From a bacterium (lineage in GTDB: Bacteria; Patescibacteriota; Minisyncoccia; UBA6257; 2-01-FULL-56-20): DNA of 64,000 nt. Of this stretch, positions 39,755 through 61,614 are shown piece after piece; the stretch's first letter is position 1, and every line of letters begins with the position of its first letter. The notes beneath the pieces were generated by a model that was not told where the DNA came from, made no database searches, and saw nothing but the letters and a program-made list of their open reading frames with translations. Both the position numbers and the translations under genes were made by a program. Where the stretch lies: assembly GCA_021780195.1 (NCBI GenBank), contig JAJXZE010000002.1, forward strand, positions 20,220-84,219, in the 5' to 3' direction.

Positions 39755-39755
39755 G

Positions 39756-42186: not shown

Positions 42187-42217
42187 AGCGCAATTATAGA
42201 GGCACGGCCGAAGCGGG

Positions 42218-42841: not shown

Positions 42842-42946
42842 GTGATTCCATTATACCAAATGCGGCCGCGCCGCCCGCGCGCGCCTTGAAAAATGCCCGT
42901 TCCCGTGCCATAATGGGCACGTTCCGTCCGCTCAAGGCCGGTTCAT

Positions 42947-43018
42947 GGTGCCTCTAGCTTAATGGTAAAGCTCCGCTCTGTGGCAGCGGCAATACGGGTC
43001 CGATTCCCGTGAGGCACC
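42947..43018 (+). tRNA. tRNA-His (anticodon GUG) with encoded G-1
   Basis: G-1 + GTGCCTC acceptor arm; anticodon stem CCGCT/AGCGG with loop CTGTGGC; T arm ACGGG-TCCGATT-CCCGT; C73 opposite G-1. CCA is not fully encoded. Confidence 0.85.
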
Positions 43019-43277: not shown

Positions 43278-44207
43278 TTATTTTCCCTTCCGCTCCACGA
43301 TTCGGTATCCTTCCAAGATCGCATCGCACATAAAATTCTCGAGTAGCGTAAGGTCGTCTTTCGTTTGCGCTTTGTTGAGATAAGCGATATACCGCCGCCG
43401 ATCCTCTTGCAGGATGACGAGCGGCGGAAGATCTTCCTTGAGCGCCATCGCATGCCCAAGCAGACGGCCAATGCGGCCGTTGCCGTCGGCGAACGGATGG
43501 ATCATTTCGAACCGAGCATGGATGGCGGCAATGTGCCGGACGACATCCTTCGTTTTTTCGCGCATATCCTCAACGAGCGTCTTCATCAGATCGGGAACCT
43601 TCGCATAATTTGCCGTGGGGACATCCGAGCCCGCTATTCGCACACCATGGTTGCGATACCCTCCGGCGTAGGGGTGGACCGCATTCAGAAGGATGCCGTG
43701 TAGCTTCACGATCAACGATTCGTTGATCGGCTCCCCTTCTCCGATATAACCGAAAAGATATTCCAAGGTAGCCTGATGGTTCTTCACCTCGAGCTGTTCG
43801 ATGATGCTCTTGTTCGGCAACGCCGCGTTCTGGAACATGATCGCCGCCGTTTCTCCTTCGGACAGCGTGCTCCCTTCGATGCGGTTCGAGTGGTACGTAA
43901 GCGACAGATAGAATTGATCGCGGATATCGGGATTATCTACAATGCGTCGCAGTACGTGCGGGCGCTGTTTTTGTTTTACGCGGATGATCCCCTTTTTCGC
44001 CGCGAGTTCGCTTTCCGGCACCTGCTTCTCGCCCGAATACTCTTTATATAATTCGTCGATTTTTTGAAGTGCCCCGAGGCGCGGCGACGCCCTTTCGTTT
44101 ATCCACCGGTTGAGCGCCGCAAAGGTAACTCCAAGGCGGTTGGCCAGCTGGGTCTGCGTCAATCCCGACAGCTTCAAGATAAGTTGTAATTTCTGTCTTG
44201 AGGTCAT
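43278..44207 (-). CDS. fic: HTH-Fic family protein (AMPylase-type toxin/regulator)
   Basis: Fic motif HPFADGNGRIGRL and an N-terminal XRE-type HTH (LSGLTQTQLANRLGVTFAALNRWI). Confidence 0.9.
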   Translation of the reverse strand: MTSRQKLQLILKLSGLTQTQLANRLGVTFAALNRWINERASPRLGALQKIDELYKEYSGEKQVPESELAAKKGIIRVKQKQRPHVLRRIVDNPDIRDQFYLSLTYHSNRIEGSTLSEGETAAIMFQNAALPNKSIIEQLEVKNHQATLEYLFGYIGEGEPINESLIVKLHGILLNAVHPYAGGYRNHGVRIAGSDVPTANYAKVPDLMKTLVEDMREKTKDVVRHIAAIHARFEMIHPFADGNGRIGRLLGHAMALKEDLPPLVILQEDRRRYIAYLNKAQTKDDLTLLENFMCDAILEGYRIVERKGK

Positions 44208-46526: not shown

Positions 46527-49349
46527 TTATGCTCCCGTTGACGCGACCCCGCCCTTATTTTTTTCTCCCGGCTTTTCGAAAACACAGATTGTACGGCCCG
46601 CATCATCAAAATAATGGGTAAGAATATACCCATTTCGCAGGGGCGACCAATCCGGAGAGTCGCCGGAGGGGTATTCTCTTGTCATGATGCCCTCTTCGGG
46701 GTTTTGATTTTTTTTGATGGCAGAAACAATTTCCCGACCACTGATTTTTTTGGAAGCGAGTCCCTTGTCGGCGTCGGGAGACAGCTCGATCTTTAAGCTC
46801 GGTACCCCCTTGTAATCATATGCTTCCGTGGCGACAAAGCCGCTCTCGATGTATCTCTTGGTGACGGGCGCCATCGGATTGCAATCGGCGAAAATAGGAA
46901 CCCCGAGGGCACGCTCCTCCCGGAGGGCTTGGTCAAGCATCGTTTCCCCCACTTTGCCTCGTCCATACGCCGGACTCGTGTTGAAAGACCCGAAATAGAT
47001 AGAATCAAGCCTGCCGTTTTTGAATGTGTGGTCGAAGCGGCAGAACGCCGCAACGGCCCCTTTGTGCTTGAAGAGATAGAATCTGGTGTCGGGATTATCG
47101 AGAGATGCATCAAATGACTGGATGAGGGCGTCGATGAATTTTTCGGGATATTCCGTCCGATTGCCATAATTCTTTTGATATATACGGCGCATCTCTTCGA
47201 GAAGCGGAGGATCTTTCTTGAGGTCGGCTCCCGAGGAGACGTTGAATTCGGCGAGTCCGAGGTCGCGAAGGTCGGCGGGAAGCTTGCCGGATCCCTGTTT
47301 TAATGCCTTTATGGTGCTGGTGAAAAGCACGACTTCCGCTTTTATGTCGTCCAGGCGCTCGAAAAGATCACGAGTGTCAGTGCCGAGCTCGGTGGCGTCG
47401 ACAAAGTGCTCTATCAGCTCGTTGCCGCGCCTCAGGAGGTTGCGGGCCACCTGGTTCACGAGTTCTTCGTCCGTCTTTTGTCCCGATGAAAAATTGTCCC
47501 GTAAATATTCCCGAACCTTCTCAATCACCGCCGCTATCTCTGCATATTTTTCAAAAAGCTTCCGGGCGTCATCGCGATCAAGGATATTCGCCAGGCGGAT
47601 GATCGCGTCGCCGTAGTCAGTCCCGCCTTCGGAGCATGCAAGGAAGGAGGTGGCAAAGTTCTTTATATAGATCCGTTCGGGATGGAGGTCGGGCTCCGGT
47701 CCCCCCCGGTGCCACTCAAGGTGGATGGAGGCGTCGTCCGCGATCTTGTCGAGCCCGGCCTTGAGGCGCTGGATTTCATCCACGTTCCGTCCGTCGATAT
47801 AATGGAGGAATTGCACCTGCGCAGAGAGGGGAAAATCGGCCATATCTATCAACAGATCGTCCTCCAGTACTTTGCGCATACTGAGTCGCATCAGGTACTG
47901 GTAGTGATATTCCGCTTCTTCCGACACCGTGCCCGCGGGGAAGAGGCGTCGCAGATATTCCTCCTTGCTGAGTATGGGCGGTGGCACGCTCTTGCCCGCC
48001 TCGAACGTTACGTATTCGGCATTCCTGCGAAGGATCTCTCCCGCCACGAAGGGATGTATGCCATCGACGTCAATACGCTCGAGGTCGAAAAAAAACTTTC
48101 GGCCGGCATCATGCAACTTGCGGTCGAAGGACCACAAGTCCTCCAGTTGCCGCAATGAACCATACCTCGGCGAACCTATTGCAAGCGCGTCATAAATCGC
48201 CTCATCCGCAGGATCATTCCGCGCTATATAGTGCCCCTCGTCAATTCCGGGTTCCTCGTCGCCGTGCGAGATGTCGAAGATGCTTTCAAGGCGCCCGGCG
48301 CGATATTGGCCGAGATAGCCGGGGGCGATAGGAAGGACCGCGTTTGCGATGGGGTTGCCCTCGGTAATGCCGTAGCGCATTCTCAGATTATACGACTCGA
48401 ACATGCGCCTGTAGGTATATATGGTCTTATTCGAGGCACCCCCCGCGATACCGGAGACGACGCCTTCTTCCATGTCGTATCGGTCGTATGAATGGACGGC
48501 TTTGTAGACGTCATCAAGATGCGCCCCGAGAAGATAATTTTCGACCCTTTCCGTGGCATCCTTCGCGAGCTCTTCCACAAATTTCAGCGCAAACCGATTG
48601 TAAGAATTGCCATATTCGTCCAGCGGCTCCTCGTCCGGGGCGATATTCTGCAGGGCCGTAATATCAGCGCTGAAAAAATCTATGATTTTGTGCGCGAGTA
48701 AGTTGCCTTGCGGGTCGTTCGCGCGAATGAGGGCGTCAAGTTGGTTTTCCACCCGCAGGGGCAGGGCGTCTTCGGCCGCCTCCATCTTTTTTGCAAAGTC
48801 CTCCCGCGGGAACAGGGAGTTTCCCAGTCCGTCAATTTCCCCCAGTAATGCGATGATCGGGAACGAGGCAGGCATTCCCTTCGAAGAGATACCCCGCGCA
48901 ACAGCGTCTTCGACGATGTCGATGCGTCGTTGCCGTTCTTCGGGAGTCCCGCCCCGAAGTACAAAATCCACAATTTGAGATCCTTTCTCCGGCCGGGGAG
49001 AAGTATTTCCGGCTTCACAAAGGGCATCGATGGCCGATCCTAGATTCTGCTCCGAAATGGTTTCCGCCGTCGCCCCGCGCGCAATGAGCACATCGGCAAT
49101 CTCATCTGCGTCGCCGACCGGAAGCGGATCGTTGGAGAGAAAGCCGTCCGGCAAGGGGCGCGCGGGTGGAAACTCTTTATTGATCGAAGCATATTCCTGT
49201 CTCTGACGGAAAAGAGGAAGGCCTGGGACAGCCCGGAGCGAATTCACCAATTCCTTCCTGCGGCGCGCTTGCTCATGCGATGACCGTTTTTTGTTCGCGC
49301 CGTATTCCGCGTCAGCGCTCAATTCCACTGTTGATCCTTCTTTGCGCAT
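46527..49349 (-). CDS. 940-aa protein: unknown ~750-aa N-terminal region fused to a C-terminal GNAT-like acetyltransferase
   Basis: The C-terminus has the GNAT acetyl-CoA motif context (SIYFGSFNTSPAYGRGKVGETMLDQAL...YIESGF). The rest shows no recognisable motif. G+C is visibly lower than in the flanking core genes. Confidence 0.6.
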   Translation of the reverse strand: MRKEGSTVELSADAEYGANKKRSSHEQARRRKELVNSLRAVPGLPLFRQRQEYASINKEFPPARPLPDGFLSNDPLPVGDADEIADVLIARGATAETISEQNLGSAIDALCEAGNTSPRPEKGSQIVDFVLRGGTPEERQRRIDIVEDAVARGISSKGMPASFPIIALLGEIDGLGNSLFPREDFAKKMEAAEDALPLRVENQLDALIRANDPQGNLLAHKIIDFFSADITALQNIAPDEEPLDEYGNSYNRFALKFVEELAKDATERVENYLLGAHLDDVYKAVHSYDRYDMEEGVVSGIAGGASNKTIYTYRRMFESYNLRMRYGITEGNPIANAVLPIAPGYLGQYRAGRLESIFDISHGDEEPGIDEGHYIARNDPADEAIYDALAIGSPRYGSLRQLEDLWSFDRKLHDAGRKFFFDLERIDVDGIHPFVAGEILRRNAEYVTFEAGKSVPPPILSKEEYLRRLFPAGTVSEEAEYHYQYLMRLSMRKVLEDDLLIDMADFPLSAQVQFLHYIDGRNVDEIQRLKAGLDKIADDASIHLEWHRGGPEPDLHPERIYIKNFATSFLACSEGGTDYGDAIIRLANILDRDDARKLFEKYAEIAAVIEKVREYLRDNFSSGQKTDEELVNQVARNLLRRGNELIEHFVDATELGTDTRDLFERLDDIKAEVVLFTSTIKALKQGSGKLPADLRDLGLAEFNVSSGADLKKDPPLLEEMRRIYQKNYGNRTEYPEKFIDALIQSFDASLDNPDTRFYLFKHKGAVAAFCRFDHTFKNGRLDSIYFGSFNTSPAYGRGKVGETMLDQALREERALGVPIFADCNPMAPVTKRYIESGFVATEAYDYKGVPSLKIELSPDADKGLASKKISGREIVSAIKKNQNPEEGIMTREYPSGDSPDWSPLRNGYILTHYFDDAGRTICVFEKPGEKNKGGVASTGA

Positions 49350-49353
49350 AGTA

Positions 49354-50136
49354 TTACGCGGATCGTGGGGTTGGCTCCTTTATCTGCTCCGCGAGTCCCC
49401 AGAGATACTCGAAGAGATATTTATGCATGGCGTAAATGTGCGGGTCAGCAAGAATGACGCCGATCATTCTTTCCGGCCGCAGAGTGACGTAAGCGATTTT
49501 TCCGTCATAAATATTCATGATGCTTTCGAATGGAGGGGCGTCCACTCGTATGAGGCGGCTCTCGGTCACGGCGAGGTGGTAATCCTTCAGGTACTCCCGC
49601 GTCGCCGGGGTATCAAGAAGGATGCCGCGCCGTTTGACTCCCAGTTTTTCCCTCTTGGCCACATAAGCGTTATTGAGGGGGCCGATATTTTTCATCACCG
49701 CCTCGATATCCGCATATGAACAGATCTCAGTCCGCGATATAAGCGTATCGTCCAGGACCTTTTTAATGCCCTCAAGGCCTTCGTAGAATAGAACACCGGG
49801 TTTTCCGGATGAAAGGTTGAAATCGGAAACCAGCGAGTTCAGAACTCCCTCGAGTGCGACGTGGGCATCGGCGGCCGCACGCGATTTCTGGTCAGCCAGA
49901 TCTCTTAGTTTCAATGGGTGGGCCGGTTCAAATTGAGCCACCGATCCCGCCTTGTCCCGTCGGACGGCCAGGCCCCCTGCTTCAAGTTCCCCGAGGATCT
50001 TGTAGGTAAGGCCGCGCTTTAGTCCTGCGTAGCTACTGATTTTTCCCGCTGGAAGCAAGCCATGCTTTACTAGGATCTCGTAGAGCTTGGCCTGGTCTGG
50101 AGAAAGTCCCGCCCTAGAAAGGGTCTGTTCGTACAT
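49354..50136 (-). CDS. TrmB-family transcriptional regulator
   Basis: N-terminal winged HTH MYEQTLSRAGLSPDQAKLYEILVKHGLLPAGKISSYAGLKRGLTYKILGELEAGGL plus a C-terminal TrmB-like sensor-length domain. Divergent from the operon promoter. Confidence 0.7.
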   Translation of the reverse strand: MYEQTLSRAGLSPDQAKLYEILVKHGLLPAGKISSYAGLKRGLTYKILGELEAGGLAVRRDKAGSVAQFEPAHPLKLRDLADQKSRAAADAHVALEGVLNSLVSDFNLSSGKPGVLFYEGLEGIKKVLDDTLISRTEICSYADIEAVMKNIGPLNNAYVAKREKLGVKRRGILLDTPATREYLKDYHLAVTESRLIRVDAPPFESIMNIYDGKIAYVTLRPERMIGVILADPHIYAMHKYLFEYLWGLAEQIKEPTPRSA

Positions 50137-50220
50137 GGCTTCATTGCAATAATAACATAAAATTAACGCTTTGGAAAGTGTCACGGGGCGTAAAAAGGGC
50201 TTAATCTTTTTTATTTATCG

Positions 50221-50316: not shown

Positions 50317-50345
50317 TTGACAGTTTTCATTGCATATGGTAATAT
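50317..50345 (+). promoter_or_regulatory. Near-consensus sigma70-type promoter of the novel operon
   Basis: TTGACA (50317-50322), a 17-nt spacer, then TAATAT (50340-50345). Confidence 0.7.
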
Positions 50346-50351
50346 ATCACC

Positions 50352-51084
50352 AGCACGATGACAGAGGGGGTGGTTCCGGAGGGTGCGCGGCTGGCAGGGA
50401 GGGGAATGGATTGAAGGGATCTATTCCTCTCCCCGAGAGCAAGAGGAGAGGCCTAAGGAGATCCGGGGAAGAGATCTTCATCAGCTCTTTGTAAAACGAC
50501 GGTCGCTCGCGGATATCAGTCTCGAGGAGAGAGTTATCTCGCAGGGCGATTCAGTCAAGCATTCGTCGCGGCGCGTGTCATCGCTTCAAAAGAGCGAGAG
50601 CGGTAGCGGGGCCAGGGAGTCGACGACTCTGCCTCCAATGCCGCGCTGATCAAATCGATCCACAGCGCCACCACGTTTCTTTTTGTGAGATACGTTGCCG
50701 GCGAAACGGTCCAACCCGCCGTTTCTCGGCAAAAATCTCCCCGAAAGAGGAGAGTGATATGGTTCCCTTAGTAAGGAGATCGACTGGAGAGCAAGCTCGG
50801 GTCCGGTTGGTCTCCAGAAACCTCCTTACTAACTCGATCGCAATCTGCGAAAACCGAGGAGAGAGCAGATTGTTAGAGGAGAGAGTAAGGAAGTACCTTG
50901 AAAATTGAATAGCCAAAGTAGTGCTTATAGCGATTATACGTTCGCGGATTATTACACGGGAGCGTCCGAGCTATGGCATTTTGACTTTGAAGTTCCTCCC
51001 GAGTTTGGTTGTCAACTGAGGTTCTGATTTTTGGTGCTTCAGTTGGCAATCAAACTCAAATACGAAACGAAAGGAGGGAGTCAA
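50352..51084 (+). ncRNA. ~730-nt structured leader / candidate ncRNA
   Basis: No convincing ORF. Nested helices lie at 50417-50464, 50695-50732 and 50768-50832 (11 + 7 bp). GAGGAGAG occurs five times (50443, 50524, 50747, 50856, 50876). Confidence 0.45.
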
Positions 51085-51555
51085 ATGAACTATTTGTTGG
51101 GGTCGGGTGAGGCGGTCATTGATCGTTTCAACTCGCACGTTCACGACGGAGTGGCGCGGCTCCTACCCGCGGCGCTGCTTCGAGTTCAGTCACAGGGTAG
51201 GAAGTTCCTCATCGAGGAAGTTGACTTTGGTCAACCAGTCGGTGAGACGATCTGCGTTCCAACCGGGCCAGGGGACGAGATCGTATACGCAATTCGGCCC
51301 AAGAGATTCGGGCACTCGCGGTTCGTCAAAAATCGCAAGCCCGAGCCATGTGGTGCGGTGACGATCATTCTCAAAAGGGATGAATTTGATCCGTACTATG
51401 TCCTAATTACGGCCTTCGTAGGCCATAAACCTGAGCCCGAGCCATGGGATCGCAATTCCAATGGTTTGAGTCGGGACTTCTGGAGTTCTCACGCCCTCAT
51501 CTGGGGGTGCGAGGAAGTCATGCACAACACAGTAACCACGGAATGTCCGTGGTAA
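51085..51555 (+). CDS. Operon gene A: hypothetical protein (156 aa)
   Basis: AGGAGGG SD 7 nt upstream of ATG 51085. Sequence MNYLLGSGEAVIDRF...RFGHSRFV...YYVLITAFVGHKPEPEPWD...FWSSHALIW. No family recognised. Confidence 0.7.
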   Translation: MNYLLGSGEAVIDRFNSHVHDGVARLLPAALLRVQSQGRKFLIEEVDFGQPVGETICVPTGPGDEIVYAIRPKRFGHSRFVKNRKPEPCGAVTIILKRDEFDPYYVLITAFVGHKPEPEPWDRNSNGLSRDFWSSHALIWGCEEVMHNTVTTECPW

Positions 51556-51583
51556 CAACAGCAACAGAGAAAGGAGAAACGAA

Positions 51584-51874
51584 ATGAAAATCAAGAGGTT
51601 GTTTTTGGCGCTGTGCGCCAAGAGGTTGGTTGTCGACATCATCACCGCTGACAACAGAGCGTTTCAGTTGAGCGGTGACCGACGGTTCGAGGGGATGTAT
51701 GAGCGGCTATTCCATGCCGACTCTCACCCCACTCGCAGAAACGTTGGAGAAGGTGAGATGCAGTGGGCTTTCGACCAGGCCAGAGAAATCCGGCTTTGGA
51801 TGGGCCCCACGGAGTATCGCACGATCACAACAACTGAGCTCGAATCCGAGCTCACGCCATTCCCGGTTCGATAG
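51584..51874 (+). CDS. Operon gene B: hypothetical protein (96 aa)
   Basis: AAGGAG SD upstream of the ATG. No family recognised. Confidence 0.6.
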   Translation: MKIKRLFLALCAKRLVVDIITADNRAFQLSGDRRFEGMYERLFHADSHPTRRNVGEGEMQWAFDQAREIRLWMGPTEYRTITTTELESELTPFPVR

Positions 51875-51888
51875 AAAAGGAGGAGACG

Positions 51889-52338
51889 ATGAGTCACATC
51901 AGAAAGGAGACCGTGCGTGGATTCGATACCGTCCACCCGGTTGTTCTGCAAGAAGGTATCAAGGTGGCCTGTCAACTTCTCTCGCTTCAGGGCCTGAAGG
52001 TGACTGATCATGTCTTTGATTGGAGTGGCCATAAGGTCACCGAGTACAACGGCATGAATGTTATCTGCGGCTTGGACGCACAGGGGTCGGCCTCGTCCCA
52101 CAAGTTTGCGGGACTGGGGCTCGCAGTCGACCAGAAGGGCAAGCTCGCGATTGTCGGAGATTTTTATTACTCCGAGCAAGAGCAGCGAGCCCAGGAACTC
52201 AAGAAGATGATCGAAACAGTTCTTGGCGGAGCCTGCTACTTTGCGGCACGGGCGATGATCGCCACGGCCAAGGGGCAGCGGACTCAGATCAAGATCAACC
52301 AAGAAACCCGCCAGCTTCAGCTGGTGGTGCAGATGTGA
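51889..52338 (+). CDS. Operon gene C: DUF1257 (Ycf35)-like protein
   Basis: AAGGAGG SD. The MSH... N-terminus, ~149-aa length and ...RQLQLVVQM C-terminus resemble Ycf35/DUF1257 proteins. Recognised from memory, not searched. Confidence 0.6.
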   Translation: MSHIRKETVRGFDTVHPVVLQEGIKVACQLLSLQGLKVTDHVFDWSGHKVTEYNGMNVICGLDAQGSASSHKFAGLGLAVDQKGKLAIVGDFYYSEQEQRAQELKKMIETVLGGACYFAARAMIATAKGQRTQIKINQETRQLQLVVQM

Positions 52339-52357
52339 GATGAGAAAGGAGGACGTC

Positions 52358-52573
52358 ATGGCAAGAGAAGTCATAACGATCGGCGGAGACGGAGGCGTCG
52401 GCTCTGAAATGTTCGGGTTCAAAGGCAAGAGCTGCCTCAAAGCGGCGGCTGAGATTGCCGAAGAGCTCAAGCGGCTCGGAGTGGTTGCCGACATCGGCGG
52501 AATCAGCATGAAAGAGGATGCCGAGGTCGTGACCGAGACGCAGCAAGCGGCAATGAAGGTCGAAAGGGGATGA
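52358..52573 (+). CDS. Operon gene D: DUF2997-like small protein (71 aa)
   Basis: AAGGAGG SD. Sequence MAREVITIGGDGGVGSEMFGFKGKSCLKAAAEIAEELKRLG matches the remembered DUF2997 pattern (I..DG.V...V.G.KG.sC.....l...lG). Confidence 0.6.
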   Translation: MAREVITIGGDGGVGSEMFGFKGKSCLKAAAEIAEELKRLGVVADIGGISMKEDAEVVTETQQAAMKVERG

Positions 52574-53205
52574 AAGTTATGGTTATGCCCCGCGTAAACC
52601 TTCACGACTTCGTCCCCCGGTCTCGTGCAAACGGGCCGGGGGAGCGAGCGGTGGTTTGGGTGCAGGGTTGCCCTCGGCGTTGTCCGGGGTGTTTCAATCC
52701 CGAAACCTTACCATTCGTTACCAAGAATTGGGTAACCGTTGATGATCTTGAGAGCCGAATCTTGGCTCAAAACAACATTGACGGCGTCACCTTTTCTGGT
52801 GGCGAACCGTTCGCACATGCACAGGCACTTGCCGAGTTGGCGAAAAAGCTGCGCAAGTATGGATTGACGGTGGTGTGTTACACCGGCTACACGCTCAAGC
52901 AACTTAAGGCCGGAAATCGCGAGGACTGGAATGCTCTTCTTTCAGAAGTAGACCTTCTGATTGACGGGCCATTCATCCAAGAGCAGCGGTGCCATGAACC
53001 ATATCGCGGCTCGGCAAACCAAATTCTTCACCTTCTTACCGATCGCATCCGATTGGAGGAAGTTCATGGGCAAAGCCAGACAGCAGAGTTCACACTCGGC
53101 GCTGGCGGAGACATCCAGCAAACTGGATTCCCTGAACTCCCCGACATGGATGCGGTCATGGGAGAAATCTCAGGGATCCTCAAACAGACAGGAGGATCGA
53201 AATGA
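52570..53205 (+). CDS. Operon gene E: NrdG/PflA-type radical-SAM activating enzyme (orphan)
   Basis: The CX3CX2C cluster is present in VWVQGCPRRCPGCFNPE, with the SAM-binding GVTFSGGEPF. About 210 aa, as in NrdG. ATGA overlaps with both neighbours. Confidence 0.8.
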   Translation: MKVMVMPRVNLHDFVPRSRANGPGERAVVWVQGCPRRCPGCFNPETLPFVTKNWVTVDDLESRILAQNNIDGVTFSGGEPFAHAQALAELAKKLRKYGLTVVCYTGYTLKQLKAGNREDWNALLSEVDLLIDGPFIQEQRCHEPYRGSANQILHLLTDRIRLEEVHGQSQTAEFTLGAGGDIQQTGFPELPDMDAVMGEISGILKQTGGSK

Positions 53206-55010
53206 AAGATACGAAGAATTGTGCCGTAACGGCACACAGTTGGTTTGAGTCTTTTGCTCGTGCCTACGCGGCCGAGCTCGGGTACGTGTTTCTTATCTCC
53301 GGCAACATCGCAGATTTATTCCCCTTGGGGAGCGAGTTCGTGACCTTGCGCCAGTTCTGGGCAAGGCAGTTGGATGGCAGAGACATTGTGGTGTTCTGGG
53401 ATAAGTCGGCGGGGTTCGCCTTTGCTGACGAAATCCTCGGCACCAAACCGGCCGAAGGGCAACTCCCGATGAGGGAGAAGTTCAAGGCCGCAGTCGGACT
53501 GAATCAGCAGCAAGGTAATGGCGGCAGCAATGCCTCTAACTTGCTGGCTGGCTTGGCTGGATTGGGCGGCGGCAACAACGGCGCGCTTCCCACTGATCCT
53601 GAGCAAGCTTTCCAGCTTCTGGAAAAATTGCTCTCACAGGGCAAGCCAGAAGATCGGAAGGCGGCGGTAGTCGTGGAGTACATCGAAAGTGTTATCCCCG
53701 AAAACGACTACGGGTCAGTTCCGGCAGTAACGCTCCAACGGTGGGCGTCTCTGGACAGCCCGCTCAAGGGTACCGGCAACCCGGTTATCCTGATCGAGCG
53801 GAATCCAGAACGGGCCTCTAGTGTAGTGAAGCATGACGATTCGTCGGTAGTGCGGATCCACATTCCTCGTCCGAACAAAGAGGAGTTCGGAACATTCATC
53901 CGTCACAGCCTGAAGGTCAACGGCGTTAAGCTCGCCGAAGGCCTGACGGTGGACGTGGCGGCCAACCTGTCAGCCGGGCTACGTTGCAAGGACTTTGACG
54001 ACTTTGTCATGAAGTCGCTCGAGTCCGGCGACCCAATCAACGACACCTTTATTTGGCAGAAAAAGGTGGAGTTGATTGAGAAGCAGTCCGGCGGGGTCCT
54101 GCAGGTGGTAAGACCCAAGCATGGGTTCGAATCCATCGGCGGGCTGGAGCACGTCAAGAGCGCCCTACGGGTGCAGATTGACAAGCTTCGCAGTGGTTCC
54201 AGAACCACTGATAAGGGTTGGATTCTGATGGGGCCTCCGGGAACGGGGAAAACCATCATCGCCGAGGCGCTGGCGAAAGAGTCGGGTGTCAATTTCGTGA
54301 TGCTCGGCAACGTCCTCTCCAAGTATGTGGGTGACTCGGAGAGAAACATGAATCTCGCTATGGAAATTGCCCGAGCCATGGCGCCCACAATCATCTTCGT
54401 TGACGAAGCCGCTGAGGCAATCGGAAACGGAGAGGGCTACAACGGGGATAGCGGCGTCAGCAATCGTGTAAGGGGGAAACTCCAGAACGTGATGGGTGAC
54501 GACTCTGCCCGGGGCCAGCTGTTCTTTATGCTGGCAACGAACTATCCCAATCGTCTGGCACCGGCGATTCTGCGTGAGGGAAGGATGGACAAGCGGGTGC
54601 CACTCTTGGTTCCTGACAGCACCGGGAGAAATGAGATTCTCAAAGCGCTTTGCCTAAAGTATGGCATTGCGTCCGAGGGAATCGACTTTTCACCTGCCCT
54701 TGCCAGTACGGAAGGGTGGACAGGTGCTGAGCTCGAGGCGCTTTTACTCCGAGCGAAGCAATTTGCAGAGGAGGAGGAAGTGCCGGTCGAGACCCGTCAT
54801 TTCGATGAAGCGGTAAAGGATTACATCCCGAGCCGCGACCAGCAGGCGTTCGACCTGATGACCGCGTTGGCCATCAGGTACACGAACTCCAGACGGCTTC
54901 TGCCCGAGGCCTATCGGTCTGCGAATGGAGAAATTCAGAAGCGGATCGATGAGCTCGAGCCTCAGGTGGCCGAGCGCGAAGCAAGGCGCCGGGGCGGGCT
55001 GAAGCTCTAG
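53202..55010 (+). CDS. Operon gene F: Ycf46/CDC48-type AAA+ ATPase (602 aa) ending RRGGLKL
   Basis: Walker A GPPGTGKT, Walker B IIFVDEA, DSGVSNRV (Ycf46-like), and a large non-ATPase N-domain. The C-terminal tail is ...IQKRIDELEPQVAEREARRRGGLKL. Confidence 0.85.
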   Translation: MKDTKNCAVTAHSWFESFARAYAAELGYVFLISGNIADLFPLGSEFVTLRQFWARQLDGRDIVVFWDKSAGFAFADEILGTKPAEGQLPMREKFKAAVGLNQQQGNGGSNASNLLAGLAGLGGGNNGALPTDPEQAFQLLEKLLSQGKPEDRKAAVVVEYIESVIPENDYGSVPAVTLQRWASLDSPLKGTGNPVILIERNPERASSVVKHDDSSVVRIHIPRPNKEEFGTFIRHSLKVNGVKLAEGLTVDVAANLSAGLRCKDFDDFVMKSLESGDPINDTFIWQKKVELIEKQSGGVLQVVRPKHGFESIGGLEHVKSALRVQIDKLRSGSRTTDKGWILMGPPGTGKTIIAEALAKESGVNFVMLGNVLSKYVGDSERNMNLAMEIARAMAPTIIFVDEAAEAIGNGEGYNGDSGVSNRVRGKLQNVMGDDSARGQLFFMLATNYPNRLAPAILREGRMDKRVPLLVPDSTGRNEILKALCLKYGIASEGIDFSPALASTEGWTGAELEALLLRAKQFAEEEEVPVETRHFDEAVKDYIPSRDQQAFDLMTALAIRYTNSRRLLPEAYRSANGEIQKRIDELEPQVAEREARRRGGLKL

Positions 55011-55060
55011 TCCGAAACACCAACACAGAAACGAAAAGAATGGAGGTGATTCCAATGTAG

Positions 55061-55758
55061 TTCTTATGGCGAGAGCCACGGAGAACCCGAATCTTTCCGC
55101 GGGATGGAGTGTGCGGGGAAGATCGGAGGCGGTCTTCGGTAGGGCTGCTTCTTAAAACATGACCCGGCGATGCATCAGGCCGAAGTCTGATGTAGGTTCC
55201 AGCGGCAGATGTTTGTCGGCTATCAGGGATATCCGGCAGACAGTTGGAACAAAGGGGTTTGTACATTTGCGGGTTCATTGGTGTGCGAGCTTCTCTCCCT
55301 GAAATGGAGAAACGAACCAAAAGCGAAGTTAACCTTCAACCGGCGGTTGGCAATCATCCGTCGAGCGTTAACCCCAAGTGGAATTAGCGGTGCTTAATAA
55401 AGGCCACAGGCCTAATGAGCCGCTAAATCCAGCAAGGTCGCAGAGTTCCCTTCGGGGGATAAATAAATTGCATAAGCCGAGAAATCGGAATGCGGATCGC
55501 GCTTGACTTAAAGCGCGAGAAGCGAGTGGCCAGTCAATCGGCCGTCCGATTTGTCCAGTTGCGAGCAACATTGCAGTTGGACTAGGCGAAGATTGAACGC
55601 GCTCATCCGCGAAACTTCAAATTCGGCCTAGGGTTCGATGAGGGGTTCTATAAAATTCTTGACTTTGGCCAAGTCTTGGCGGCACTTGCTTTGCCGTAAC
55701 CTCGGGCTAATCGCAAGTTAGCTCGAGGAAAGCAAGAAGGGTTTAGGGTTTACAGTCC
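55061..55758 (+). ncRNA. Candidate large structured RNA inside the operon
   Basis: About 800 nt without a credible ORF. Stable helices include 55385-55425 (nested), a C(UUCG)G hairpin at 55445-55460, a GAAA-tetraloop hairpin at 55477-55488, an 8-bp helix at 55497-55518 and a three-tier helix at 55685-55736. Confidence 0.5.
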
Positions 55759-55824
55759 GGGCGAGTTGACGCACTCAACTCGCCCCTTCTTCCGAACTCA
55801 TCATCATGGTGATGATGAGTTCGG
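55759..55824 (+). promoter_or_regulatory. Two tandem perfect hairpins preceding gene G
   Basis: GGGCGAGTTGA-CGCAC-TCAACTCGCCC (55759-55785, followed by CTTCTTCC) and CCGAACTCATCATCA-TGG-TGATGATGAGTTCGG (55792-55824). They may act as an attenuator, terminator or processing site. Confidence 0.45.
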
Positions 55825-55868
55825 AGAGAGGGTTCATTGACAACCAAATACGAAAGGAGGAAAGCAGA

Positions 55869-56621
55869 ATGGACAAGGTCCAAATCTACCCGCAAGGGCT
55901 CGGAGAGTACGAGCGGACACTTGGTCTGCGCTGGTCGGTATCATATTACTTGATGCCAGAAGCGCATACGTGCCAAGTGGTCTGCGACGGTCGCGAGCGA
56001 AAGTGTGAGATTTGGATCAACGGTACCACGTACCGAAATCCAGAACTCATGTTCGCTGATGTGATTCATGAGCTCTGCCATTGTAGTTTGGCAGAACGAA
56101 TCGATCCGGCTTTCTCGACGGTTTTCTTTTCCAACAAATGGAATGAAATCAGTCGAGAAGATGAGGCTCGGTTCGGTCAGCTTGCTCGCATGCTCTACTA
56201 CGCGTGGAGTCATGTAGACATTTGGGTGAACGATCTTCGTTTCGCCCACTGGCCAGAGCTCACAAACGAGGATCACAATACTTTTGCACAAGGGATGGTA
56301 GCAATCGTCCAAGCGCAGGAGTGGCGTGTTCTGCAGTCACCCGAAACAGTTCTTGGTCTGGCTCAATACCAGGCTGAGAGGAATCGGCATCATGTCAATA
56401 CGCCTGATCTGTTTGCAGCTTTAGAGGCAAACGGAGTGGGCGTGGATGACCAAATCCGAAAATTGGCTATCTACTTTGAGTCTTTGCCTCGATTGAAGTT
56501 CAATCAGAGAAAGGACTTGAAGGCACTCGAGCGGTCAGTTCAGGACGCAGCGAAGATGCTGAACTTTCCTATCACCCCCCGGCTTGTCTGGGAGGAACGA
56601 TGGGTATGGAGTCTCGACTGA
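55869..56621 (+). CDS. Operon gene G: HExxH-motif protein, putative zinc metallopeptidase
   Basis: Start moved to ATG 55869, after AGGAGG; the ORF-track start 55806 lies inside the hairpin. A single HELCH motif in ELMFADVIHELCHCSLAE. No other family signature recognised. Confidence 0.55.
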   Translation: MDKVQIYPQGLGEYERTLGLRWSVSYYLMPEAHTCQVVCDGRERKCEIWINGTTYRNPELMFADVIHELCHCSLAERIDPAFSTVFFSNKWNEISREDEARFGQLARMLYYAWSHVDIWVNDLRFAHWPELTNEDHNTFAQGMVAIVQAQEWRVLQSPETVLGLAQYQAERNRHHVNTPDLFAALEANGVGVDDQIRKLAIYFESLPRLKFNQRKDLKALERSVQDAAKMLNFPITPRLVWEERWVWSLD

Positions 56622-56658
56622 GACCCAAAGCAAAAAGCAAAAGGAAAGGAGAAATAAA

Positions 56659-57000
56659 ATGAGAAACGGCAATTTCCTGTATCAGCTGAGTTTGCAGGAG
56701 GCTTTCATTGTTCACCGCGGCGTAAGCCAAGGCGGCAAGAAGCTGAATGCAGATCAGCGGAGGATTTTCTGGCAGAGAAATAGCCAGAAGGTCAGCGGTG
56801 TCGAGATTGGTGCCGGCAAGGTGCTGGTCTCACTGGTTGGGCTCAGAGTTCTTCGCGAGAAGAATCTCGTGATCGTTTCCAACCCCGGGAAACCGAGGAT
56901 ATGGACGATCAAGCGGATCATGGAATCCGCTGAGAGGAATCAAGTTATTCCAGAACTGACGCAGGGATCGTCTCAGCGTCGAGGTGGACTGAAGCTGTAG
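56659..57000 (+). CDS. Operon gene H: 113-aa protein ending RRGGLKL
   Basis: Start at ATG 56659, after AAGGAG. The tail ...TIKRIMESAERNQVIPELTQGSSQRRGGLKL shares KRI...RRGGLKL with the AAA+ ATPase. Confidence 0.65.
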   Translation: MRNGNFLYQLSLQEAFIVHRGVSQGGKKLNADQRRIFWQRNSQKVSGVEIGAGKVLVSLVGLRVLREKNLVIVSNPGKPRIWTIKRIMESAERNQVIPELTQGSSQRRGGLKL

Positions 57001-57055
57001 CAATTCCAAACCTGTTTGCCTCAGGCAAACGCAACTGAAATGAAAGGAGATCGAA

Positions 57056-58366
57056 ATGAAAGGGATCTATTACAGCAGACATTGCGGTTATGATAACCGC
57101 GATCAGAACAAGGACGACTGGCGTCAGCCGGTCGAAGGTGAATCCATCATTCTCAATCGATCTGCGTTCTCCAAGTTCTTCCCCGAGGTCGTAATCCAAG
57201 GGGAAATCAAGTGGAGATGCAAGGATCACAGCGATGAGCGGTGCGAGGGCTGCAACGGTTGCGACCAGAGTGTGAAAATCACTTTTGGCCGCGAAGGGGG
57301 GCAGTTCACCGTCAGTCGCACGGACGAGGGCAAGACCCACAACATCGACCAGTTCGGCTGGGGATGGAGTGGGAACGGGGCCAACGAGCACTGGTTCGAT
57401 GATGAGGCGATCTGCCTCAAGTTGGTCAGTGACTATCGATCAAACACAGGCCTTACGGCCGACTCCACAAGGATCGTCTCTTACAAGCGACACGTGGAGG
57501 TTGATTCTTTCCGCGGCGATTGCAAAGATGAAACACGAACATTGCCCAAGGGAGGTAAGATTTGGGCGGAGTTCGTCAATCATCCGGCGCAGTACCGCGC
57601 AAACTGGACGGGCTTCGGGATCGGGACATTGGATTCTGACGCTACGCCAATCATTGGCGACGCATTGGACAACCTGATCGAGACAATGCTTTCCGGCAAC
57701 ATCGGCAAGGAGACGGTGTGCAGACACAACAGTAACGTACGAGCGCACATCGTGACCGCCGATCCCAACAAGGTCTCCCTCTACCTCTGCAAATCCTGTC
57801 GGATGCGCGGAGTGCGGTGGGAAGAGTTCATGACCAGGAATCGCGCGGATACGTGTCCTTATTTCCGCCGCGCTTGCAAGAGCGTAGTGGAGAAATCGGA
57901 CTCGTTCCCCGAGTGGTTCAGCTGGAACGGCGACAATCTGCTTTCTTCTACCCTTCGGCTGAAAGACGGCGAGTACAATGCGTACGAAGTCGTCTATGTT
58001 CGAAGGAAGGAAGGATTCATTCGCCGGTCGGTGCTTCTTCTAAACGATCGCACTCGTGAAGTGTGGATGTTCCGCTACAACGGATTCATCCCGCGCACGA
58101 TGGCGGAGTTCAAAACCAAGTACGCCGAAGGTCGTCAGATTAGCGGCTACATGGGCACCGGTCCGACAGACCGCAGCTACAACAGCGAAAATCCCAATGA
58201 CAGATTCCTGTCAGAGGCGAAGATCGCGGAGGCGATTGCACAGGGTTTGAGCAACCCAGTGTGGAGAAACGGAACCTCCTTGCTCATCTCCATCGATTTG
58301 GGTCGCAACGATCTTCACGATTTCGCGATCCAGAAAGGGGAGATCAACGGCTACCAGATTGCGTAA
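57056..58366 (+). CDS. Operon gene I: 436-aa Cys-rich protein, unknown family
   Basis: AAGGAG SD. Cys clusters C55-x7-C-x2-C-x2-C (CKDHSDERCEGCNGC) and C-x2-C...C-x6-C (LCKSCRMRG...CPYFRRAC). The stop TAA is followed by a 65-codon in-frame open extension. Confidence 0.7.
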   Translation: MKGIYYSRHCGYDNRDQNKDDWRQPVEGESIILNRSAFSKFFPEVVIQGEIKWRCKDHSDERCEGCNGCDQSVKITFGREGGQFTVSRTDEGKTHNIDQFGWGWSGNGANEHWFDDEAICLKLVSDYRSNTGLTADSTRIVSYKRHVEVDSFRGDCKDETRTLPKGGKIWAEFVNHPAQYRANWTGFGIGTLDSDATPIIGDALDNLIETMLSGNIGKETVCRHNSNVRAHIVTADPNKVSLYLCKSCRMRGVRWEEFMTRNRADTCPYFRRACKSVVEKSDSFPEWFSWNGDNLLSSTLRLKDGEYNAYEVVYVRRKEGFIRRSVLLLNDRTREVWMFRYNGFIPRTMAEFKTKYAEGRQISGYMGTGPTDRSYNSENPNDRFLSEAKIAEAIAQGLSNPVWRNGTSLLISIDLGRNDLHDFAIQKGEINGYQIA

Positions 58367-58683
58367 CTTGACCACGAAGGCAAGGAGTGCGAGCTGGAGG
58401 CCAAGCCAACCCCCGCTCCGTTCTACACGGACGCGGGTGCCAGTTACCATCTGATTTACGGTGATTGGGCGCAGCATACGGTTCTCCGCCATCACGGCGA
58501 GGAGCTGTATCGCTCGGATCGGAGCAATTACAAGTGGTTCATGCTCCGAGTCGCAAAGCAGTAGAACCACGCCACCTCGTCCACCCGAGGTACGAATTCA
58601 AAGTGAGTCAGGGGAGTGGATAATGGCTCAAAGGGTTAAAAGGTTTACAATCAAGGGAGCAAGTAATGCACTTGCTTGCTCCC

Positions 58684-58736
58684 TCTCTTTCTCGGATGTG
58701 TATCCGAGCTGATGAGTCCGAAAGGACGAAAAGAGA
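58684..58736 (+). ncRNA. Type III hammerhead ribozyme
   Basis: Reading 5' to 3': TCTCTT (stem III 5' strand), U17, predicted cleavage between 58690 and 58691, then stem I CTCGGAT-GTGT-ATCCGAG. These are followed by the core CUGAUGA, stem II GUCC-GAAA-GGAC, the core GAA, and AAGAGA (stem III 3' strand). All conserved core nucleotides are present. Confidence 0.8.
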
Positions 58737-58996
58737 CAGAACATTAAAAAAGTGATATAATATAAATGGCCATCAAGAGGCCGATGCGTCAGCTTAACGG
58801 AATCGGATCGGGGCAGCAGTGTGAGATCGTCCCCGCTCTGTGTAAATAGAGAAGGGACAAAAATCTCTCTCCTCTAAAACACCGTTCCTCGGTCTGTATA
58901 ATTTCAGGTAAGCTGGCGCGCGGCCTCGTGATGGACATCAGCCCGTCACGAGGAGAGGATGAAAGGCGCAACTTTTCATCCTTTAATATACAAAGT

Positions 58997-59022
58997 CCGC
59001 CTTCTTAAGGCGGCCCTTTTTT
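58997..59022 (+). terminator. Rho-independent terminator
   Basis: CCGCCTT-CTT-AAGGCGG followed by CCCTTTTTT. Confidence 0.7.
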
Positions 59023-59189
59023 GTTTAGTTGAATGGATTTTCAAAATTAAATTTATGAGACAATAGCCGATTCTTGAAACAAAATGACGCATAACAATCT
59101 TGCCTTGCAAAGAATGAAATTCACAGAAAACACTCTCATTGCCCGCGCATTCTTGGTGGAGGCGATTATCACAGGGATCCTCTCGCCAT

Positions 59190-59898: not shown

Positions 59899-60018
59899 AG
59901 TAGTCTCCTTTCCGTGGGATTAACCGCCCCACGAGCGGAACTGCTGTATATGATAACATTTCATAAAAGTTTGTCAAGTTGCTATCCTCGCCTTTATAAT
60001 AGGGTGGATATCATTTTC

Positions 60019-60504
60019 ATGTTCCTCTCCCTCATCGCGGCGGCGGACGAACAGGGCGTGATCGGCGACCATGGGAAGATCCCGTGGCACCTTCCCGCCG
60101 ACTTCGCACACTTCAAAGTGGTCACTACGGGCCACCCGGTTATCATGGGGAGGAAGACGTTTGAATCGATCGGCAAACCGCTCCCGGGCAGGACGAACAT
60201 CGTCGTGACCCGCGACCGCGGCTACGCGGCGGAAGGGTGCCTCATGGCGGATTCACTCGAGCGTGCGCTTGAACTTGCGGAGCAGGCGCAGGAGTCCTTC
60301 GTGATCGGCGGCGGCGAACTTTACCGCATCGCCATGCCGCACGCGACGCGCGTCTATCTCACGCGCGTGCACGGCGAATTCGCGGGCGATACGTATTTCC
60401 CGGCGATGGATGAAAAAGAATGGGAACTCGTTTCTTCCGAACCGCACGGGAAGGATGAAAAAAATCCGCACGCGTATACCTTCCTGACGTACGAGCGGAA
60501 ATAG
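60019..60504 (+). CDS. folA: Dihydrofolate reductase
   Basis: Start trimmed to ATG 60019. Sequence MFLSLIAAADEQGVIGDHGKIPWHLPADFAHFKVVTTGHPVIMGRKTFESIGKPLPGRTNIVV. Confidence 0.92.
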   Translation: MFLSLIAAADEQGVIGDHGKIPWHLPADFAHFKVVTTGHPVIMGRKTFESIGKPLPGRTNIVVTRDRGYAAEGCLMADSLERALELAEQAQESFVIGGGELYRIAMPHATRVYLTRVHGEFAGDTYFPAMDEKEWELVSSEPHGKDEKNPHAYTFLTYERK

Positions 60505-60603
60505 CGCGGCGGGCCCCGCGCACGGGAAGGACGGCAGAACGCTCCCTTTCGCGGCGCTTATGAGGGATGGTCGCGTTGCGAAAGGGAGTATTCTGCCGTC
60601 CCG

Positions 60604-61614
60604 TTATGCCTGCGGCGTGCCGCCGCGATCCTCCCCTTTCACAAACTTCTTCCAGGAGTCCGTCACGATGCCGCCCGCGGCCGTGAGTTCCGCTTTGATC
60701 GCGGGGTGGGGATCGTAGCCCGCGAGTACTGCGTGCTCGGGCCTGAAGTGGTCGATGTCCGTGACGGCGGGGTCGAGGGCGAGCGTGGGGAACGGGCGGG
60801 GTTCGCGCGCGAGCTGTTCCTTCACCGCCGCGGCATGATTTTCGTAAATGTGGACGTCGCCGAATGTGTGCACGAATTCGCCCGGCTCGTTGCCGGTCGC
60901 GCGCGCGAGGATGATCGTGAGGAGCGCGTAGCTCGCGATGTTGAACGGCACGCCGAGGAAGATGTCCGCGGAGCGCTGGTAGAGCTGGAGCGAAAGGCGG
61001 CCCTCCTTCACGTTCGCCTGATACATGTTGTGGCAAATGGGGAAGCGGCAGGCCTCCTCGGGCTTCGCCATCTCATAGAGATATTCCGGGTTCCAGGAGG
61101 TGACGATCGCATTGTGCGCGTCGGGATCCTTCCTGAGGTCGTTCACGAGCCAGCGGACCTGGTCTACGGTGCGCCCGTCCCTCGCGGGCCATCGGCGCCA
61201 GAGTTCGCCGTAGATGCGGGGGAGTTCGCCGTGCTCTTTTGCAAAGACGTCGTCCGCGGCGATCTTTGCGACGAACTCGTCCTTCCCGAGAGGCGACAGT
61301 TCGCCCTTCTCGGCGCGCTCGCGGTAGATGCGGTAGGGGTAATCGTCCCAGATGTGGACTTTCCGGTCCACGAGATATTTTATGTTCGACTGGCCGGACA
61401 GAAACCAGGCAAGTTCCTCTACGACGCCCTTCCAGAAAACTTTTTTCGTCGTGAGGAGGGGGAATCCTTCCGCGAGGTCGAAGCGGATCTGGCGACCGAA
61501 GACGCTTTGCGTGACCGCGCCTGTGCCCTTGTCCTCCTGGCGCTTCCCGTGATCCAGGATGTCCTGCATCAGGTCGAGATACTGGTATTCGGGGTGGCGC
61601 GGGGCGTTCGGCAT
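60604..61614 (-). CDS. thyA: Thymidylate synthase (ThyA)
   Basis: FPICHNMYQ...LQLYQRSADIFLGVPFNIASYALLT catalytic region. Confidence 0.92.
   Translation of the reverse strand: MPNAPRHPEYQYLDLMQDILDHGKRQEDKGTGAVTQSVFGRQIRFDLAEGFPLLTTKKVFWKGVVEELAWFLSGQSNIKYLVDRKVHIWDDYPYRIYRERAEKGELSPLGKDEFVAKIAADDVFAKEHGELPRIYGELWRRWPARDGRTVDQVRWLVNDLRKDPDAHNAIVTSWNPEYLYEMAKPEEACRFPICHNMYQANVKEGRLSLQLYQRSADIFLGVPFNIASYALLTIILARATGNEPGEFVHTFGDVHIYENHAAAVKEQLAREPRPFPTLALDPAVTDIDHFRPEHAVLAGYDPHPAIKAELTAAGGIVTDSWKKFVKGEDRGGTPQA

Follow-up and report, generated by a model that had tools for sequence, protein, structure and literature searches.

The 64-kb stretch of contig JAJXZE010000002.1 studied here (hereafter the window; all coordinates are positions in it) carries nine consecutive open reading frames (ORFs) on the forward strand, A to I, which an earlier note on this DNA had proposed to form an undescribed multi-gene system. 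The ORF listing confirmed the nine same-strand frames at 51085-58366. The locus also includes two long non-coding regions, IG1 and IG2, and is an operon specific to its lineage, the Paceibacterota (Patescibacteria); the cluster was found in small bacteria of the candidate phyla radiation only. Its proteins were searched against Pfam, NCBIfam, PHROGs and PADLOC; retrieved related loci or contigs are given L numbers, and protein relatives P numbers. The starts preferred for D (52358), G (55869) and H (56659) are based on the positions of Shine-Dalgarno (SD) sequences and on homologues. Lengths are given in amino acids (aa) or nucleotides (nt), and z-scores are relative to shuffled sequences.

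50346-51084, forward strand: IG1, a long structured 5′ leader (z = -6.0), with a conserved 3′ part of about 320 nt (50767-51084)
51085-51555, forward strand: gene A, 156 aa, function unassigned, homologues in jumbo phages
51584-51874, forward strand: gene B, 96 aa, no family match, homologues in L084, L088 and L089
51889-52338, forward strand: gene C, 149 aa, core gene, protein starting MSHI and containing an invariant Cys116
52358-52573, forward strand: gene D, 71 aa, DUF2997-like, invariant Cys26, stop codon overlapping the start of E
52570-53205, forward strand: gene E, 211 aa, NrdG-type radical-SAM activase
53202-55010, forward strand: gene F, 602 aa, N-terminal domain, one AAA+ domain and tail RRRGGLKL
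55011-55868, forward strand: IG2, structured RNA between F and G/H (z = -10.3), conserved part 55327-55868, domain R1 at 55339-55441
55869-56621, forward strand: gene G, 250 aa, accessory, conserved HELCH, zincin-like
56659-57000, forward strand: gene H, 113 aa, basic, invariant VHRGVSQGG and disordered tail RRGGLKL
57056-58564, forward strand: gene I, a 436-aa ORF ending at a TAA (58364-58366), followed by an in-frame remnant to 58564

A GGAG-type SD is located 5-12 nt 5′ of A, B, C, D, F, G, H and I; the description of an AGGAGG-type SD on each gene thus holds for eight of the nine and fails for E, which has the weaker GAAAGGGG. The ATGA stop/start overlaps reported at 52570 (D/E) and 53202 (E/F) are both present, and E is translationally coupled to D and F.

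Homologues of F sharing 70-96% identity come from metagenome-assembled genomes (MAGs) labelled Candidatus Paceibacterota, Patescibacteria or Parcubacteria. The following order recurs in about 15 related contigs: a GNAT protein and a TrmB gene (reverse strand), IG1 (0.7-2 kb), A-B-C-D-E-F, IG2 (0.8-2 kb) and (G)-H-I. The gene-neighbourhood check that had been suggested therefore showed that the homologues co-localise and that their order is kept. Genes C-D-E-F constitute the conserved core, which is retained down to an F identity of 37% (L086), and in all the loci examined E accompanies C, D and F. C and D make up a small unit of two proteins, which some genomes encode as a fusion: in L086 they are one protein of 207 aa (2078-2701), which indicates that they act together, and they are also fused in P0189. 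ORFs in which E is fused to F (P0200 and P0203; 764 or 765 aa) are present on JGI contigs of close relatives. Directly downstream of F, L086 carries an integrase gene, and it is the sole distant locus with an adjoining integrase.

The genes around this core are less constant. Gene I is present in nine loci and G in three (the window, L100 and L096). H is kept in L082, L084 and L103, and its domain is duplicated in tandem within one protein in L095 (12993-13751; 252 aa) and L082 (12541-13335; 264 aa), with retention of the Arg-rich tail. In the clade of the window, the core is extended by the IG2 RNA and by two proteins, the small and basic H and the large, Cys/His-containing I. Distant F homologues occur in unrelated settings, indicating that this ATPase family has been reused in several contexts. 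Relatives with about 30% identity and the same N-terminal domain (L003, L004 and L007) are found beside PQQ-type beta-propeller proteins in Acidobacteria and beside a type IV secretion system coupling protein on a Lachnospiraceae contig. A metagenome scan gave seven loci, and 74 of the 80 loci from a contig scan on generic Walker-A patterns were unrelated FtsH-like ATPases. Two scans of IMG/VR revealed no relative of the system. The strong conservation of F (80-96% identity across many Paceibacterota MAGs) and the constant TrmB and GNAT neighbours suggest a conserved function specific to this lineage rather than a rapidly turned-over defence island. Patescibacteria account for much of bacterial diversity, and the majority of the genes specific to their lineages have no explanation; judged by F identity, this cluster is among the best-conserved of these unknowns.

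E is an NrdG-type radical-SAM activase. Pfam identified Fer4_12 (1e-35) and Radical_SAM (3e-9) in this protein, the CX3CX2C motif is contained in GCPRRCPGC, and E shares 31% identity with E. coli NrdG across 154 aa (E-value 2e-24). The best model, NrdG TIGR02491, gave 107.5 bits (6e-31), which is below its equivalog cutoff of 126.1, and PHROGs also returned NrdG-like matches. These results uphold the NrdG/PflA-type assignment made from motifs. E has a C-terminal extension of about 50 aa. No NrdD-like sequence was found within the 64-kb window and, as stated previously, no canonical glycyl-radical enzyme adjoins the activase; in L094 an NrdR-NrdD pair is located about 9 kb downstream.

The proposal that F is a CDC48-type AAA+ protein was also borne out. 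F matches PF00004 (3.5e-27) and contains the motifs GPPGTGKT and IIFVDEA, and the best PDB matches of its AAA+ domain are VAT, Cdc48 and p97 D2 (E-values of about 1e-80 to 3e-80). TIGR01243, the model for CDC48 proper (cutoff 802 bits), gave 128 bits and covered D2 only. F has a single AAA domain, and its N-terminal domain is unrelated to the double-psi-barrel of the CDC48 family. Residues about 1-300 form a family-specific domain that is found too in phage ATPases (phrog_8638). Together these comparisons identify F as a predicted single-ring Cdc48/VAT-like AAA+ unfoldase with an N-terminal domain of its own. The DKSAGF motif in this domain was considered as a radical site and rejected, as its Gly is also invariant in homologues without E, including phage proteins.

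No Pfam family matched A, B, G, H or I. A and B had been called unrecognisable, and indeed B, like G, H and I, has no family match in any of the four databases whereas A matches only phrog_23674 (4e-21), a family of jumbo-phage hypothetical proteins; the PHROGs families of A and F are both of unknown function. Full-length homologues of A (about 35-40% identity) were detected by tblastn in the jumbo phages GAP32 and CBB and in Serratia phage BF. The one in Cronobacter phage GAP32 (L098, 4001-4474) lies among tRNA genes and is annotated as hypothetical. The phage settings of the A and F homologues (Catdawg, SM1 and GAP32) were uninformative. The single HELCH motif noted in G, an HExxH motif, is present and is invariant in the three available homologues, and G matches no peptidase family in Pfam, NCBIfam, PHROGs or PADLOC.

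The assignment of C to Ycf35/DUF1257 did not stand. Neither C nor eight homologues matched DUF1257 (PF06868, gathering score 22.2 bits) at E-values up to 1, and this hidden Markov model (HMM) result does not support a DUF1257 identity for C. An exhaustive phmmer search with C among 1.8 billion representatives yielded only 14 relatives. There is a faint transitive link: P0197, which aligns with the C family with an hhalign probability of 98%, matches DUF1257 with an E-value of 0.07 (13.8 bits), so that C may be a very distant DUF1257 relative. The DUF2997 assignment of D is borderline, with 22.9 bits (E-value 8e-5) against a gathering score of 24.1 for PF11211. Among D relatives, the L096 homologue has a weak precomputed match to DUF2997 and the C+D fusion P0189 matches it with an E-value of 0.04.

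Proteins F and H both end in RRGGLKL, confirming that they share a tail. The C-terminus of F is ARRRGGLKL in nearly all close homologues, with the variants RRRGNLEL, RRRGKLSL and RRGNLKL; distant forms are RTVRAL and RGRREL, RRRSL is also listed as degenerate, and the F protein of L082, a locus that keeps E, has no tail. H, whose length of 113 aa was confirmed from the 56659 start, ends in RRGGLKL, RRGGMKL, RRGGLQL, RHGGLKL or RSGGLKL. The last 17 residues of H are disordered in its AlphaFold model, and the model has no PDB fold match. L103, a locus with neither I nor G, keeps the tail. Three identities were considered and rejected. An ubiquitin-like nature of H, based on an 'RRGG' tail with a propeptide, does not agree with a model that has no beta-grasp and no PDB match, with the variation of the second Gly, which argues against a di-glycine ubiquitin-like tag, or with the lack of any E1-, E2- or JAB-type protein. 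H has neither fold nor motif similarity to a GrcA-like spare glycyl-radical domain. Finally, family searches gave no HK97-fold shell candidate for which the tails could be an encapsulin-type targeting peptide.

Protein I has 41 homologues, none with a Pfam domain; a search with a concatenated H+I protein gave I homologues only. The invariant residues in the alignment include C222, H224, C245, C248 and C267. I had been described as a 436-aa protein with Cys clusters. The ORF length is correct, but the ORF is cut short by an in-frame TAA (58364-58366) that is CAA (Gln) in all homologues, which are about 509 aa long, and the N-terminal Cys cluster is not conserved. The 65-codon remnant after the TAA (58367-58564) is intact and aligns with the C-terminus of the homologues. 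The TAA-bearing sequence is also present in an independent Logan assembly (L001); the codon would be either a recent nonsense mutation or a population variant. Gly364 of I is invariant and is located in a loop, R-Q-[ILV]-x-G-[YF]-x-G-[TA], which reads GRQISGYMGTGP in the window. Compared with the radical loop of E. coli NrdD, TRRVCGYLGSP as taken from the genome, it has four identical and five conservative positions out of 11. When related loci were scanned with the loop motif, I homologues and one other match, an unrelated L088 ORF, were found. A short-peptide search of PDB with the loop gave no match, I has no PDB sequence match, and its AlphaFold model (mean predicted local distance difference test score, pLDDT, 79) has no PDB or BFVD fold match.

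The claim of two large structured non-coding gaps is supported by the z-scores of IG1 and IG2 given above. Nucleotide identities were calculated between the window and L100/L101, with four-fold degenerate sites (0.55/0.51) as neutral yardstick. The 3′ 320 nt of IG1 (0.90/0.78), the 3′ 540 nt of IG2 (0.90/0.84) and the core of IG3, about 300 nt downstream of I (0.94/0.94), are well above this value, whereas the 5′ parts of IG1 and IG2 are near neutral. Indels in the conserved non-coding stretches have lengths that are not multiples of three. As long non-coding gaps are unusual in streamlined genomes, their conservation points to function. No Rfam 15 family reached its gathering score in the locus, and permissive scans of IG1, IG2 and IG3 gave chance-level matches only; the comparison covered OLE, GOLLD, ROOL, HEARO, raiA, 6S, tmRNA, RNase P and SRP. 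ARAGORN gave no match.

In IG1, an anti-SD sequence (UUCCUCC, 50993-50999) pairs with the SD of gene A (51073-51079) in a helix that is kept in L100 and L101, and a 22-bp hairpin lies at 51001-51058; RNAalifold showed compensatory pairs in this leader. Hence, the predicted leader fold can sequester the gene A SD. A 16-nt purine-rich motif, AGAGGAGAGAGTAAGG (50875-50890), is located 155-210 nt upstream of A in five loci. The purine-rich sequence GAGGAGAG(A/T)G occurs in three copies in IG1 (50524, 50747 and 50876), the third within the 16-nt conserved motif.

The conserved part of IG2, about 540 nt, is highly branched with about 20 helices. RNAalifold analysis of four sequences showed that 26 of 141 pairs were changed on both sides, against 8.6 +/- 2.3 for shuffles and 0-7 for slid controls. 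A covariance model of R1 matched on the same strand within IG2 of L095, L089, L102, L096 and L094 (E-values from 3e-5 to 0.02 over 292 kb). In a nine-sequence R1 alignment, which leans towards structure because it was fitted to the model, 24 of 31 pairs were changed on both sides and 90.9% of cells pair, against 72.5% for shuffles. R1 is present in exactly the nine loci that carry I and absent from five loci without I.

Parts of this locus resemble known systems. E has the NrdG architecture (Fer4_12 plus radical-SAM core with CX3CX2C, and the 31% identity to E. coli NrdG) of class III ribonucleotide reductase NrdD/NrdG, PFL/PflA and GrcA systems, and I has a Zn-type Cys/His cluster and, in GRQISGYMGTGP, a loop resembling RRVCGYLGSP of NrdD. 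Unlike NrdG, however, E scores below the cutoff and is joined to an AAA+ ATPase and two small proteins, and some E loci are without I; unlike NrdD and other glycyl-radical enzymes, I has no barrel similarity in sequence or fold and no ATP-cone or NRDD domain. With the Cdc48/VAT/PAN/Mpa and Bpa/PafE systems the locus shares an AAA+ domain nearest to VAT/Cdc48 D2 and a short tail common to F and the small non-ATPase H. It differs from them in that F combines only one AAA+ domain with an unrelated N-terminal domain, that the Arg-rich tail (RRGGLKL) lacks a penultimate Tyr, and that no 20S proteasome or known chamber protease is encoded nearby. Like OLE RNA (with OapA/B/C), GOLLD, ROOL, HEARO and raiA, IG2 is a multi-helix, covariation-supported RNA of about 0.5 kb in an operon with lineage-specific uncharacterised proteins, but it has no Rfam match, belongs to Patescibacteria, has other protein partners and may be either a stable product or a leader.

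The cyanobacterial ycf35 (DUF1257)-DUF2997-fed7 cluster and Ycf46-type AAA+ proteins resemble the locus in having a small DUF2997-like protein beside a protein of about 150 aa starting MSH, with an AAA+ of the SpoVK/Ycf46/Vps4 group nearby; C, however, has no DUF1257 match, there is no ferredoxin at the present locus, and the cyanobacterial cluster has no radical-SAM gene, RNAs, H or I. The PADLOC IetA and NCBIfam IteA models of IetAS match the AAA+ domain of F (residues 326-522; E-value 1e-18). This match concerns the generic AAA domain only: there is no IetS serine protease partner, and the N-terminal domain of F and the gene setting are unrelated. PADLOC gave generic AAA and viperin-like partial matches only, and none of its systems matches. 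Literature searches on DUF1257/DUF2997, Ycf46/Ycf35 and radical SAM with AAA+ and Patescibacteria gave no description of the system in the searchable literature. In agreement with the earlier note, the locus is thus a coherent multi-gene system that appears undescribed. We consider the ensemble new because it matches no PADLOC system or Rfam family, five of its nine proteins have no Pfam family, and those members whose family is recognisable, an NrdG-like activase and a classical AAA+, are here in an undescribed combination and context; its function is unproven.

As a tentative working model, we propose that E makes a glycyl radical on I, that C and D serve E, that F and H dock on a common partner through the tail they share, and that IG2 is a leader of H-I or an RNA subunit. 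The proposal is based on the short resemblance between the loops of I and NrdD and on the presence of an NrdG-like E in the same operon. According to it, E, with S-adenosylmethionine and a reduced [4Fe-4S] cluster, would abstract a hydrogen from Gly364 in the loop of I. The radical would pass to the invariant free Cys267, beside a Cys3His zinc site, and I would thereby be a glycyl-radical enzyme with a non-canonical fold. C and D might be an electron-delivery or adaptor module for E; in cyanobacteria, DUF2997 and ycf35 adjoin the ferredoxin gene fed7 (PMC4284462). A single partner, which could be a protein or the IG2 RNA, would receive the tails of both F and H; this RNA may act as the regulatory leader of H-I or belong to the complex as an RNA subunit. 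A parallel for the tail of F and H is the C-terminal tail that non-ATPase activators share with proteasomal ATPases. The cluster may thus unite three novelties: a possible new glycyl-radical protein class with a dedicated activase; an AAA+ unfoldase joined to a radical-SAM enzyme in function, and sometimes in sequence; and large covariation-supported structured RNAs absent from Rfam. The RNA motifs and the families H and I, which have no detectable relatives, are reportable even if the mechanism is wrong.

Several observations weigh against this model. The resemblance between the loops of I and NrdD spans 11 residues only and, compared with the PROSITE pattern PS00850, the Arg of the I loop is shifted by one position and the residue before the Gly varies. 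I has no ten-stranded alpha/beta barrel and no PFL-like, Gly_radical or NRDD Pfam domain, and the nonsense codon in I lies in this very window. In addition, four or five loci retain E but have no I (among them L082, L084, L086 and L103), which implies that where C-D-E-F are kept without I, E needs another target, or that its target is common to all loci. The E reading frame of L100 (3050-3830) looks disrupted or duplicated at its 3′ end. An electron-donor role of C and D is based on a neighbourhood in another phylum and on a DUF1257 link that HMMs do not support. As to the tail, its second Gly is not invariant (N, K and H variants), and its binding partner is hypothetical.

It is also possible, if somewhat doubtful, that IG1 and IG2 act as regulatory RNAs in cis and nothing more, IG1 as a leader or riboswitch-like element of A and IG2 as the leader of G/H/I, and that the proteins form a protein-only system. 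The helix between the anti-SD and SD at the 3′ end of IG1 that is kept in L100 and L101, the constant distance of the 16-nt motif upstream of A in five loci, and the confinement of conservation to the 3′ parts of IG1 and IG2 all point in this direction, as does the finding that IG2 stops at the SD of G or H and occurs together with gene I further downstream. However, a conserved RNA of about 540 nt with about 20 helices far exceeds known riboswitches in size and no known ligand-binding RNA family matches; moreover, a small basic protein with an Arg-rich tail, such as H, would suit RNA binding.

We regard as unlikely that the locus encodes an ATP-dependent unfolding or degradation machine, in which F and H, the latter as an ATP-independent cap or adaptor, would dock by their tails on I or G as chamber or peptidase, with E modifying or regulating one component. 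Mpa and Bpa share a GQYL tail, and PAN and VAT use HbYX tails on the 20S proteasome. Compatible with such an analogy are the VAT/Cdc48-D2-like nature of F, the conserved disordered tail common to F and H, the conserved HExxH of G and the invariant Cys and His of I. Yet G is present in only three loci and I is absent from several, neither matches a peptidase family, I has no fold match, and the tail is kept in L103 without I and G. A remodelling or proteolysis module armed by radical chemistry, as suggested originally, is possible. Improbable to a similar degree is the most elaborate form of the glycyl-radical model, a ribonucleoprotein radical-enzyme machine unique to the candidate phyla radiation (CPR) in which E radicalises I, with a fold unlike that of known glycyl-radical enzymes, E is hard-wired to the unfoldase F, and F and H dock by their tails on an RNA of about 540 nt that scaffolds or gates the complex.

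A conflict/defence or mobile-element function had been favoured in the earlier note; an anti-phage or conflict system, or mobile-element cargo, now seems rather improbable. The lower G+C content and the nearby Fic and GNAT genes would fit it, as would the phage homologues of A and of the N-terminal domain of F, the match of IetA-type models to the F AAA domain, the integrase beside L086 and the variable accessory content (G, I and the H duplication). Against this, no PADLOC system matches and the IetA match reflects a generic AAA domain without an IetS-like protease; the IMG/VR scans gave no relative, conservation of F across MAGs is very strong, the synteny with TrmB and GNAT is constant, and an integrase adjoins one distant locus only. 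Overall, the analysis gave no evidence for a defence or mobile-element role. The statement that the locus has no nuclease, integrase or obvious effector also remains valid: we saw no nuclease, toxin or abortive-infection-type effector, and no integrase, repeats or att-like ends.

It is very unlikely that E is simply the NrdG of the class III ribonucleotide reductase of this genome, with functionally unrelated genes around it. NrdG models are the best for E and an NrdR-NrdD pair lies downstream in L094, but the score below the equivalog cutoff, the C-terminal extension, the lack of nrdD in the window, the conserved overlap coupling to D and F together with the E-F fusions, and the constant association of E with C, D and F all argue otherwise. 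Least probable of all is that the activase targets the shared tail R-R-G-G-L-K-L of F and H, producing a C-terminal glycyl radical or another radical-SAM peptide modification: although the tail resembles RRxxG of the NrdD loop and is conserved on two operon proteins, H is kept with E and F more widely than I, and PFL activase accepts short peptides, no aromatic residue follows the Gly, the second Gly varies, and the tail is degenerate (RTVRAL, RRRSL) in distant loci keeping E and missing from F in L082.

The operon is flanked by the following features.

46527-49349, reverse strand: large protein (940 aa; GNAT-like domain at the C-terminus), conserved next to the TrmB gene in related loci
49354-50184, reverse strand: TrmB-family transcription regulator (PF01978, 2e-7), divergent from the operon
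50317-50345, forward strand: promoter-like site TTGACA-17-TAATAT with an upstream TG (10 of 12 positions match)
58654-58745, forward strand: 13-bp hairpin followed by a type III hammerhead-like motif (RF00008, 24.1 bits against a gathering score of 48.5; E-value 0.008 on 481 nt)
58733-59025, forward strand: candidate stand-alone small RNA of about 255 nt (z = -8.25; identity 0.94 to L100 and L101)

Both the near-consensus promoter and the divergent TrmB-type regulator described previously are present; promoter-like sites as a class are not enriched over shuffles. TrmB homologues occupy the same position in L084, L088, L094 and L095. The 940-aa protein and its L094 and L084 homologues have weak matches to Acetyltransf_1 (Pfam), and tblastn showed that the GNAT-containing protein is syntenic in L084, L088 and L094. 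The G+C content is lower than that of the flanks across about 43-60 kb, confirming the low-G+C segment. Upstream of this segment are an HTH-Fic protein (43278-44207, reverse strand) and three tRNA genes (38852-43018). A second AAA+ protein of 609 aa (40357-42186, reverse strand) is 33% identical to the AAA domain of F; judged by its size and match, it is probably the housekeeping FtsH.

The hammerhead-like motif downstream of I has the core CUGAUGA-GUCCGAAAGGAC-GAA with stem III UCUCUU/AAGAGA (6 bp), stem I CUCGGAU/AUCCGAG (7 bp) and stem II GUCC-GAAA-GGAC. It folds, by minimum free energy, into a three-way junction (z = -5.4), and L100 and L101 carry the motif without variation. The U-H cleavage dinucleotide is UU in the window and UC in these two loci (H17 being U and C, respectively). 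The core, three-helix junction, open stem III and U-H dinucleotide are those of the type III hammerhead RF00008. It differs in its score of 24 bits against 48.5 and in the very short stems I and II, which carry tetraloops, so that the usual hammerhead loop-loop contact is not evident. If active, this putative ribozyme would cut the operon transcript near its 3′ end, at about 58691. Its 3′ end is overlapped by the promoter of the candidate small RNA, GAGACA-17-TATAAT with the TG of an extended -10 (58733-58761); next come a rod-like body of some 190 nt that hardly varies (58768-58960) and, at 58997-59025, an intrinsic terminator. The small RNA has no Rfam family match and was not found in L088 or more distant loci, and may therefore be an independent neighbour. 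Further downstream, at 59914-61614, ORFs resembling dihydrofolate reductase and thymidylate synthase were recognised by eye from their translations, and core sequence of higher G+C content resumes.

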